A stretch of 64,000 bases of DNA from the NCBI RefSeq assembly GCF_003019035.1, contig NZ_CP027447.1. The stretch is one strand, 5' to 3'. Below the pieces are notes generated by a model. The model was not told the DNA's origin. It did no database searches and saw nothing but the letters and a program-made list of their open reading frames with translations. Positions within the stretch are counted from its first letter, which is position 1; every line of letters begins with the position of its first letter. Source of the stretch: Escherichia coli (GTDB lineage: Bacteria; Pseudomonadota; Gammaproteobacteria; Enterobacterales; Enterobacteriaceae). This document shows positions 1,884 through 42,923 of the stretch, piece after piece. Made by a program: the position numbers and the translations under genes.

Positions 1884-2450
1884 TAGCTAACCAACGAAGC
1901 TAAGGTTGGTAATTAAGGAGTTCTCCACGGGTGAGGTGGAGTGCGTGCGCCGGACACGGGTGAGCATCCGGCACTGACAGTTTACTGAAAGGATATTTCC
2001 ATGAAAAGTCAGACCATAACGCGAAAGCGCACGGCGAGGTAGCTGGTTCATAGATAGCCTGTCGTTAAATTTTCGTCGACCGTGCGCTTCCGGTTGTGGC
2101 ACTCCGCGAAATGGCGCGGCGGTAAGTATGGCGGGGTTATTCCTTCCCCGTTGAGGACACCGGGTTGTCAGGTTGACCATACTCTTAAGTGACACCCCCG
2201 CTGCAACGCCCTCTGTTATCAATTTTCTGGTGACGTTTGGCGGTATCAGTTTTACTCCGTGACTGCTCTGCCGCCCTTTTTAAAGTGAATTTTGTGATGC
2301 GGTGAATGCGGCTAAGCGCACGCGGAACAGTTAAAACCAAAAACAGTGTTATGGGTGGATTCTCTGTATCCGGCGTTAATTGTTAACTGGTTAACGTCAC
2401 CTGGAGGCACAAGGCACCGCATCACAAAACTCATTGTTGAGGGCGCGATA

Positions 2451-41529: not shown

Positions 41530-41700
41530 CCACCGAAGTTGTTGGTATTGACTGACTGGCTGGTCTTCTGGCTTAGCGTCATCCTCTCCCGACCTTCCCA
41601 ATCTCGCGATCAGTGGCATTTTCGGGTTTGTCAGCATTACAGCAGCGGGGGCTGCGAGGGATTTTCACCCTCTTCCCAGGCACAAATGTGCCACACCTGT
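41530..41700 (-). promoter_or_regulatory. Cobalamin (B12) riboswitch-like leader of the cob operon
   Basis: Minus strand reads ...GGGAAGAGGGTGAAAATCCCTCGCAGCCCCCGCTGCTGTAA...GGGAAGGTCGGGAGAGGATGACGCTAAGCCAGAAGACCAGCC (B12-box-like). Confidence 0.65.
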
Positions 41701-41806
41701 CAGCGTATGTTATGAGCTGATTTCACTTTTCCCATAACAGGGAAATAACGTTAATTATTCATTCCAGAGTTTATTTAAACCGTCCTCTTTTTTTGGGGCA
41801 TTTACT

Positions 41807-42721: not shown

Positions 42722-42923
42722 GATAAAACCTCCCAGTTAATTTATTGTTATAGCAAAACAATTGTTTTACATTTAATCTTCACATCATCCTTGATGATTT
42801 ACTGACGAGAAGCACAAAGGACAATAACAAAAGCCTCCGTGAAGCGGGAGACTTTTTAATAAGTTCGGAAAGCAGATCACAAACAGTAAAAAAATAAACG
42901 TTTATAACTGCCAGATTATTTCG

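Follow-up and report, generated by a model that had tools for sequence, protein, structure and literature searches.

We identified a structured RNA in the spacer between dicF, which encodes a small RNA, and dicB, which encodes a cell-division inhibitor, in a prophage of Escherichia coli. The spacer lies in a stretch of 64,000 nucleotides of contig NZ_CP027447.1 (assembly GCF_003019035.1), called the window below, and all positions count from its first nucleotide. An inverted repeat that frames the spacer is the closing helix (P1) of a folded RNA and not a DNA signal, and the interior that it encloses is a pseudoknotted domain homologous to STnc100/PasD. The same element precedes kilR and tciA in related phages and prophages. 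P1 probably closes an RNA of approximately 150 nt that is a substrate of RNase III in transcripts reading through the DicF terminator. The role of P1 as a processed stem is not new and goes back to work published in 1990. What appears to be new lies in the interior, which is an unannotated relative of STnc100.

The first 6.7 kb of the window form the early-left operon of a Qin-type lambdoid prophage, with the gene order ydfC, dicF, dicB, ydfD, a recE-like gene, xis and int, followed by a tRNA. An integrase and an excisionase are encoded 3 kb downstream of the spacer; the integrase is that of an ordinary prophage, beside a tRNA attachment site. The locus is 96–97% identical to K-12, whose Qin spacer differs by a few substitutions, and the spacer is without annotation in K-12 and in almost all E. 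coli matches listed. DicF scores 76.7 bits against Rfam RF00039 at 2225–2276 (gathering score 48). Because DicF ends before it and the DicB ORF begins at 2451, the repeat fills the dicF-dicB spacer. It starts at 2285, outside the DicF RNA proper (2225–2276), and among the DicF forms only the processed one of 72 nt extends into its 5' arm. A search in and around the element found no + strand sigma-70-like promoter and one weak - strand site, as expected by chance, and no terminator-like site was found in 1850–2700. The features of the locus are the following.

2225–2277, + strand: DicF small RNA, 53-nt form (Rfam RF00039; identical to K-12 dicF, b1574)
2277–2281, + strand: U-tract of the DicF terminator, directly after the terminator hairpin
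2282–2437, + strand: structured element in full, comprising an STnc100-like domain whose closing helix is extended (model R1; sub-threshold match to Rfam STnc100)
2285–2304, + strand: 5' arm of P1, GUGAAUUUUGUGAUGCGGUG (repeat search, covariation)
2296–2297, + strand: putative RNase III cut in the 5' arm (72-nt count from the DicF 5' end)
2305–2307, + strand: junction AAU, within the invariant GGUGAAU motif (alignments A2 and A3, canonical STnc100)
2308–2323, + strand: P2 hairpin, GCGGC / GC-A-CGC with loop UAAGC (RNAalifold consensus)
2324–2326, + strand: 5' strand of P2a, GGA, pairing with UCC at 2369–2371 (RNAalifold, pair counts)
2328–2334, + strand: 5' strand of the pseudoknot, CAGUUAA (seven Watson-Crick pairs with 2383–2389)
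2335–2368, + strand: P3, closed by P2a and variable in sequence and length (A2, A3)
2372–2398, + strand: P4 hairpin, stem 2372–2379 / 2391–2398 and loop UUGUUAACUGG at 2380–2390 (covariation)
2383–2389, + strand: 3' strand of the pseudoknot, in the P4 loop (pairs with 2328–2334)
2400–2414, + strand: P5 hairpin, CCUGG-AGGCA-CAAGG, with the invariant GGAGGCAC motif (covariation)
2415–2434, + strand: 3' arm of P1, CACCGCAUCACAAAACUCAU (repeat search, covariation)
2424–2425, + strand: putative staggered RNase III cut in the 3' arm (2-nt 3' overhang rule, PMC6212723)
2439–2443, + strand: Shine-Dalgarno sequence of dicB, GAGGG (sequence; the ATG follows 7 nt further on)
2451–2639, + strand: dicB, cell-division inhibitor of 62 aa (ORF list; RefSeq 'cell division inhibition protein DicB' under BLAST matches)

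The repeat itself can be read directly. The arms ttttgtgatgcggtg (2290–2304) and caccgcatcacaaaa (2415–2429) form a perfect 15-nt inverted repeat with 110 nt between them, and this interior contains both of the GTTAAC palindromes noted in the sequence-only reading (2382–2387 and 2390–2395). The ORF that was said to follow at 2451 is dicB, whose ATG begins there. A repeat finder lengthens the arms to 19 nt at 95% identity (2286–2304 / 2415–2433), and by hand they extend to a 20-bp helix (2285–2304 / 2415–2434) that includes one A.C mismatch, 2289/2430, and ends in a G.U pair. We simulated the window 300 times under a first-order Markov model and searched for perfect 15-nt inverted repeats whose arms are 3–150 nt apart. 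Only one of the 300 simulated windows held such a repeat, and chance is therefore not the explanation. The earlier judgement that the repeat was improbable holds, although its estimate of about 1e-2 was slightly conservative compared with the simulated mean of 0.003 per window. The RNA spanning 2280–2440 is predicted to fold at -56.3 kcal/mol (z = -4.5 versus shuffles). The window contains two more perfect inverted repeats of 15 nt or longer, at 1130–1166 and 9795–9830. The former lies between a dicA-like ORF (625–1086) and a ydfA-like ORF (1272) and gives spurious mir-2041 matches on both strands.

BLAST detected copies of the element upstream of kilR in Rac-like and Stx phages, upstream of tciA/terB in P1, P7 and D6, and also in Klebsiella phages. 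Scanning viral contigs for exact motifs contributed about 120 more loci, for a total of 125 copies (80 distinct sequences) from viral contigs, phages and K-12. We aligned 31 representatives that are less than 95.5% identical (alignment A3). The closing helix and three inner helices covary across these divergent homologues. RNAalifold, unaided, recovered the inner 9 bp of P1 together with P2, P2a, P4 and P5 from the 31 sequences; the outer part of P1 was added to this consensus by hand and then tested by pair counting. In the full model 91.4% of the cells are paired, versus 32–39% when the partners are slid by 1–3 columns. Changes on both sides are seen at 26 pairs, and none of 500 shuffles attains any of the five measures used.

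P1 (helix 1) shows both-side changes in 14 of its 20 pairs. The seven innermost pairs include G.U 25 times and A.C three times, and their variants TGCGGTG/CACCGCA, TGTGGTG/CACCGCA, TGTGGTG/CACCACA and TGCAGTG/CACTGCA form a chain connected by wobble intermediates. The K-12 Qin copy differs by two arm substitutions, both of which give G.U pairs on the + strand only, and one Klebsiella copy has a perfect 18-bp helix of wholly different sequence (AGACCTTGCAATGCAGTG / CACTGCATTGCAAGGTCT). Since G.U is tolerated and A.C is rare, whereas a DNA-level site would treat both alike, the helix acts as + strand RNA. In related prophages the repeat is neither absent nor degenerate: homologues of the Qin-like, Rac-like, Stx-phage, P1/P7/D6 and Klebsiella phage types retain the helix and show compensatory changes in it.

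The inner helices differ in how they vary. In the P4 stem (helix 5) seven of the eight pairs are changed on both sides and 95.3% of the cells are paired, and the loop is conserved. P2a varies at pair 45/115 (AU 15, GC 4, CG 4, GU 2, UG 1) and P5 (helix 6) at pair 149/159 (UA 19, GC 12); in the window one pair of P5 is a G.A mismatch. The search pattern fixed P2 in this set; canonical STnc100 sequences have CCCCC/GGGG or CCUUUC/GAAAGG at this position. The loop of P4 pairs with the strand preceding P3, and the versions CAGUUAA/UUAACUG, UGGUUAU/AUAACCA, UGGUUAG/CUAACCA and AAGGUUG/CAACCUU each provide seven Watson-Crick pairs. Because these are independent sequence versions at the same positions, a pseudoknot is the best reading. 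The two GTTAAC palindromes are thereby explained: one supplies the P4 loop strand of the pseudoknot, the other the 3' strand of the P4 stem. Outside P1, the U-tract of the DicF terminator and the AAA that follows it (2277–2284) can pair with U(G)UUGAGGG (2435–2443), which includes the dicB Shine-Dalgarno sequence. Through many G.U pairs this would extend the helix to about 28 bp, and it is reminiscent of fourU elements. The U-tract of the Rac copy pairs with an A-run instead.

STnc100 (RF02076) is the only Rfam family that matches the element, with 30.6 bits at 2288–2428 (model positions 21–154 of 206), which is below the gathering threshold of 47 bits. Nine homologues representing all subtypes likewise score 28–44.3 bits, every one below 47, and other families searched against 2150–2500 at E up to 10 gave chance-level matches only. 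However, the cmscan alignment to STnc100 matches helix for helix, and the closing helix, GGUGAAU, P2, P4 and CACC-GGAGGCAC-GGCACC are found in both. We also built a covariance model (R1) from our own alignment of dicB-, kilR- and tciA-type copies, from which canonical STnc100 was excluded. R1 scores 157.6 bits on the window element (E 2e-44) and finds no further copy in the window besides the reverse strand of the same site (30 bits); the region upstream of DicF is vaguely similar by eye only. The same model finds canonical STnc100 over its full length with 45–67 bits (E 1e-11 to 1e-17), and the canonical sequences have pseudoknots of their own, AUCAGC/GCUGAU, CUGGUG/CACCGG and UCCAGCCA/UGGCUGGA. 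STnc100 has been described as an uncharacterised prophage RNA, found for instance 75 nt downstream of stx2B, and was recently tied to the PasD small RNAs of prophages in pathogenic E. coli (bioRxiv 10.64898/2026.05.13.724894). That work makes no mention of DicF, dicB, kilR, RNase III or a pseudoknot. In some viral contigs canonical STnc100 occurs as tandem pairs about 480 nt apart (L060, 11942–12085 and 12424–12563; L142, 1182–1315 and 1588–1736; also L137, L157 and L176). The C4 antisense RNA of P1/P7 was considered and rejected, as the matches in these phages lie upstream of tciA/terB in the ban operon and not in immI, and Rfam C4 gave no match.

The element is widespread in E. coli, occurring at 10406 places in 4631 of 5426 complete genomes (median 2, maximum 9 per genome). 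It is also found on P1-like phage-plasmids, and the genera among the matches seen are Escherichia, Shigella, Salmonella and Klebsiella. In the subtype to which the window copy belongs, 84 of 100 copies begin 3–5 nt past an intrinsic terminator. In copies that follow a terminator P1 has a median length of 28 bp when two defects are allowed, compared with 8–12 bp in other subtypes. Start codons lie approximately 17–40 nt beyond the element in nearly all copies. The downstream ORF belongs to the DicB family in about 53 copies, is KilR in 13 and TerB/TciA-like in 6, and the remainder are short, mostly hydrophobic ORFs. Copies of this E. coli prophage segment also appear in two phage records whose hosts are not Enterobacteriaceae, at 98% identity in MT713136 (Aeromonas phage AP1, 249906–250152) and at about 81–86% identity in PP818812 (Actinobacillus phage vB_Apl-pPE4, 5840–6254); contamination or chimeric assembly may explain both. 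Elsewhere in the window, outside the prophage, matches at the Rfam gathering level are EFASI (11569–11697, - strand), C4 antisense RNA (13177–13264, - strand), a cobalamin riboswitch (41541–41715, - strand) and STnc230 (42782–42865, + strand). Together with four tRNA matches of equal score (72.6 bits; 7813, 33018, 34839 and 37247) they point to the insertion of additional mobile elements close to tRNA genes.

The Rac prophage of K-12 has the small RNA KilS (b4833) with its terminator, then an unannotated copy of the element (R1, 142.8 bits), then kilR (L131, NC_000913.3 1417800–1419800, minus strand 448–703). KilS ends at a DicF-like terminator (Rfam DicF, 39 bits). KilS has been placed in the kilR 5' UTR with its own start site, and the element between KilS and kilR was not described (PMC8175672). 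A further subtype, with the pseudoknot AAGGUUG/CAACCUU, continues into UGCUGUGUGUAGUCCUGGCGG and a terminator, that is, a seed and hairpin like those of KilS and DicF. It was seen in L040 (5550–5760) and 13 similar viral contigs and has the full architecture of an STnc100 gene. The presence of this seed and hairpin in the subtype suggests that DicF and KilS descend from STnc100-type genes that lost their 5' domain.

Processing by RNase III connects the element with published work on DicF. According to two secondary summaries (PMC5069750, PMC9438474) of Faubladier, Cam and Bouche (1990), the 72-nt DicF is an RNase III product of the full-length or read-through dicBF mRNA. Counting from the annotated DicF 5' end, its 3' end would be at 2225 + 72 - 1 = 2296, which is 12 nt into the 20-nt 5' arm. 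Because this reported end falls in the arm, the role of the helix as a processed stem was already known, and the proposal of a processed RNA stem in the sequence-only reading is borne out both by this RNase III-dependent end and by the + strand RNA covariation. The placement of the cut depends on the two summaries and the 72-nt count: an error of a few nucleotides would keep it within the arm, and a different DicF 5' end would shift it out. In vivo, the two pairs between staggered RNase III cuts usually include a G-C pair (PMC6212723). If the 72-nt arithmetic is right, these pairs would be U2295-A2424 and G2296-C2423, which include the G-C pair that the rule prefers. The 20 bp of P1, with one A.C mismatch, also agree with the helix of about two turns (approximately 20–22 bp) expected of an RNase III substrate.

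Sequencing data give weak support to RNase III action on the dicF-dicB spacer. Table S1 of PMC5371410 lists 1649470 (dicF-dicB), which corresponds to 2313 in the window, with 0 and 0 reads in the wild type versus 26 in the rnc mutant; these 26 reads are unstranded and come from a table of about 2000 sites, in which the authors marked this one as already known. A 2023 study from the Vanderpool laboratory (PMC10448788) describes only an upstream RNase III site, at the 5' end of a 190-nt DicF species, and mentions no downstream one. That 5' end falls at about 2088 in the window, in the 3' arm of an imperfect hairpin of about 22 bp upstream of DicF (2014–2099; -37.4 kcal/mol, z = -2.3). The operon thus seems to place DicF between two distinct RNase III helices. 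In PMC3175480 and PMC4152368 we found nothing specific to an expressed core RNA from the dicF-dicB spacer.

Based on these observations we propose the following sequence of events. The RNA of approximately 150 nt would be made only in early-left (dicBF) transcripts that read past the DicF terminator. P1, with 20 bp, or about 28 bp if the U-tract pairs with the ribosome-binding region of dicB, would then be the duplex on which host RNase III acts. If the enzyme cuts with a stagger, at about 2296/2297 in one arm and 2424/2425 in the other, DicF would carry 19 additional nucleotides at its 3' end, which makes it the published 72-nt species, and a core of 128 nt (2297–2424) would be released. The cut in the 3' arm would also produce a dicB mRNA starting at 2425, with a 26-nt leader before the AUG. 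The predicted core consists of an 8-bp stem, four hairpins and the 7-bp pseudoknot. It would belong to the STnc100/PasD family, and its stem would have the length found in free-standing STnc100.

The stable release of the core and any effect on dicB translation or stability are more conjectural. The excised core alone is predicted to fold no better than shuffles (z = -1.4). The predicted probability that the dicB Shine-Dalgarno sequence is unpaired is 0.02 in the read-through RNA and 0.78 after processing. However, the dicB AUG is predicted to behave in reverse and to close after processing, and the Rac kilR leader shows neither pattern. As Qin and Rac are inconsistent, we do not use the predicted accessibility of the ribosome-binding site as evidence. 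We offer only tentatively the idea that the cuts release a functional pseudoknotted RNA of 128 nt, protein-binding or trans-acting, which would appear only upon read-through of the DicF or KilS terminator, with DicF and KilS being the seed-plus-terminator halves of former STnc100-type genes.

A folded leader could also control the translation or stability of a toxic downstream gene in cis, independently of RNase III, with the long helix, the pseudoknot or the exposed GGAGG in the P5 loop setting the access of ribosomes or RNases to dicB and kilR. Such a leader might respond to a protein, temperature or a small ligand, although we know of no such ligand or protein. The element ends 5 nt before the dicB Shine-Dalgarno sequence, start codons follow closely in nearly all copies, and the downstream genes encode small, mostly toxic products (DicB, KilR, TerB/TciA-like proteins, short hydrophobic peptides). 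In addition, GAAU, the AGGCA loop and ACC are unpaired and invariant, which a plain RNase III site would not need, and folding of the read-through RNA predicts pairing between the terminator U-tract and the dicB Shine-Dalgarno sequence. However, this pairing is not reproduced at Rac kilR. The same core also occurs in canonical STnc100 genes, where it precedes a terminator and not an ORF, and control of a gene therefore cannot be its sole role. We regard this explanation as unlikely. Another candidate is a processive antiterminator like the put RNA of HK022, which would make RNA polymerase ignore downstream terminators. It is suggested by the presence of a structured RNA in a lambdoid early-left operon and by the location of canonical STnc100 between a promoter-like site and a terminator. 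The window element, however, follows the DicF terminator instead of preceding it. The put RNA consists of two hairpins, unlike the closing helix, four hairpins and pseudoknot found here, and R1, run against the complete HK022 genome to test for similarity to putL or putR, gave no match at E up to 10. This explanation is highly improbable.

Explanations at the level of DNA fit poorly with the pattern of variation. The perfect 15-bp repeat, its inner GTTAAC palindromes and the nearby integrase and excisionase would suit an invertible segment, or a site at which the two repeats fix protein binding or looping, both of which the sequence-only reading had raised. However, a switch of the Hin, Gin or Fim type should be found in both orientations among its copies, and in none of the 125 is the interior flipped with respect to the terminator before it and the gene after it; in 84 the terminator is on the same side. 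The sequence of the arms varies and their pairing is kept, and the preference for G.U over A.C is relevant only to + strand RNA. The interior has covarying helices and a pseudoknot of its own and no + strand promoter-like site, and the integrase is an ordinary one beside its attachment site. The proposal of an invertible element is not supported by these data and that of a looping regulatory element is without support; we reject both and consider a DNA-level element of either kind extremely unlikely. A miniature mobile element of the MITE type, with the arms as terminal inverted repeats, would account for the many copies per genome and for sharp borders, such as the BLAST matches in other prophage types that end at 2435, just beyond the right arm. 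However, the flanks (AAA / TGT) show no direct duplication, every copy whose neighbouring gene could be called is co-oriented with that gene, and all sampled copies are in phage or prophage DNA. Moreover, the arms of the P1/P7/D6 and Klebsiella copies are conserved only as pairing and not as sequence, and copy number follows the number of lambdoid prophages. A mobile element is thus also very unlikely.

An RNase III substrate enclosing an STnc100-like domain, our preferred reading, would provide a structural basis for the long-known 72-nt DicF and links both DicF and KilS to the STnc100/PasD family. Few prophage regulators of E. coli have been studied as much as DicF and DicB, and the Rac toxin KilR has drawn clinical notice. 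The 170-nt spacers before dicB and kilR are blank in the K-12 annotation, yet they hold a conserved pseudoknotted RNA. The STnc100 threshold of Rfam misses this branch, which is the commonest of the family with approximately 10400 copies in 5426 genomes. Should the core prove functional, most E. coli genomes would contain between one and nine copies of a structured RNA class that has gone unrecognised there. The structure also defines mutants, in P1, the pseudoknot and the P5 loop, with which to ask how toxic prophage genes are kept silent.

The known system closest to the element is the RNase III site of the dicBF transcript described by Faubladier and coworkers in 1990, which is at the same locus and places the 3' end of the 72-nt DicF in the 5' arm. 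The summaries in PMC5069750 and PMC9438474 give the size of the product only, and include no helix, enclosed RNA or fate of the dicB side. The KilS locus of Rac (b4833; PMC8175672) repeats the Qin arrangement of a small RNA with its terminator, the element and a division inhibitor. STnc100/PasD resembles the element in its closing helix, GGUGAAU junction, P2, pseudoknotted P4 loop, CACC-NGGAGGCAC-NNGGCACC motif and prophage location. However, canonical STnc100 is a stand-alone gene located close to Q and stx in the late region, and it consists of a promoter-like TTGAC(A/T), a domain closed by an 8-bp P1, a linker of 20–30 nt and a strong intrinsic terminator. The window copy is inside an operon between DicF and dicB, has a P1 of 20–28 bp and no terminator of its own, and is followed by the Shine-Dalgarno sequence and ATG of dicB.

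RNase III sites are well known from the polycistronic mRNAs of phages, including those of the lambda N leader and sib and the early sites R1–R5 of T7. The element resembles them as a long, near-perfect helix between cistrons of an early transcript that would be cut by host RNase III. Cleavage of the lambda and T7 type separates functional RNAs and resets the 5' leader of the next gene, and by analogy the same may apply to DicF and dicB. The lambda and T7 sites are simple hairpins with internal loops. In contrast, the helix described here encloses a conserved pseudoknotted domain of several helices, relatives of which occur as free-standing RNAs.
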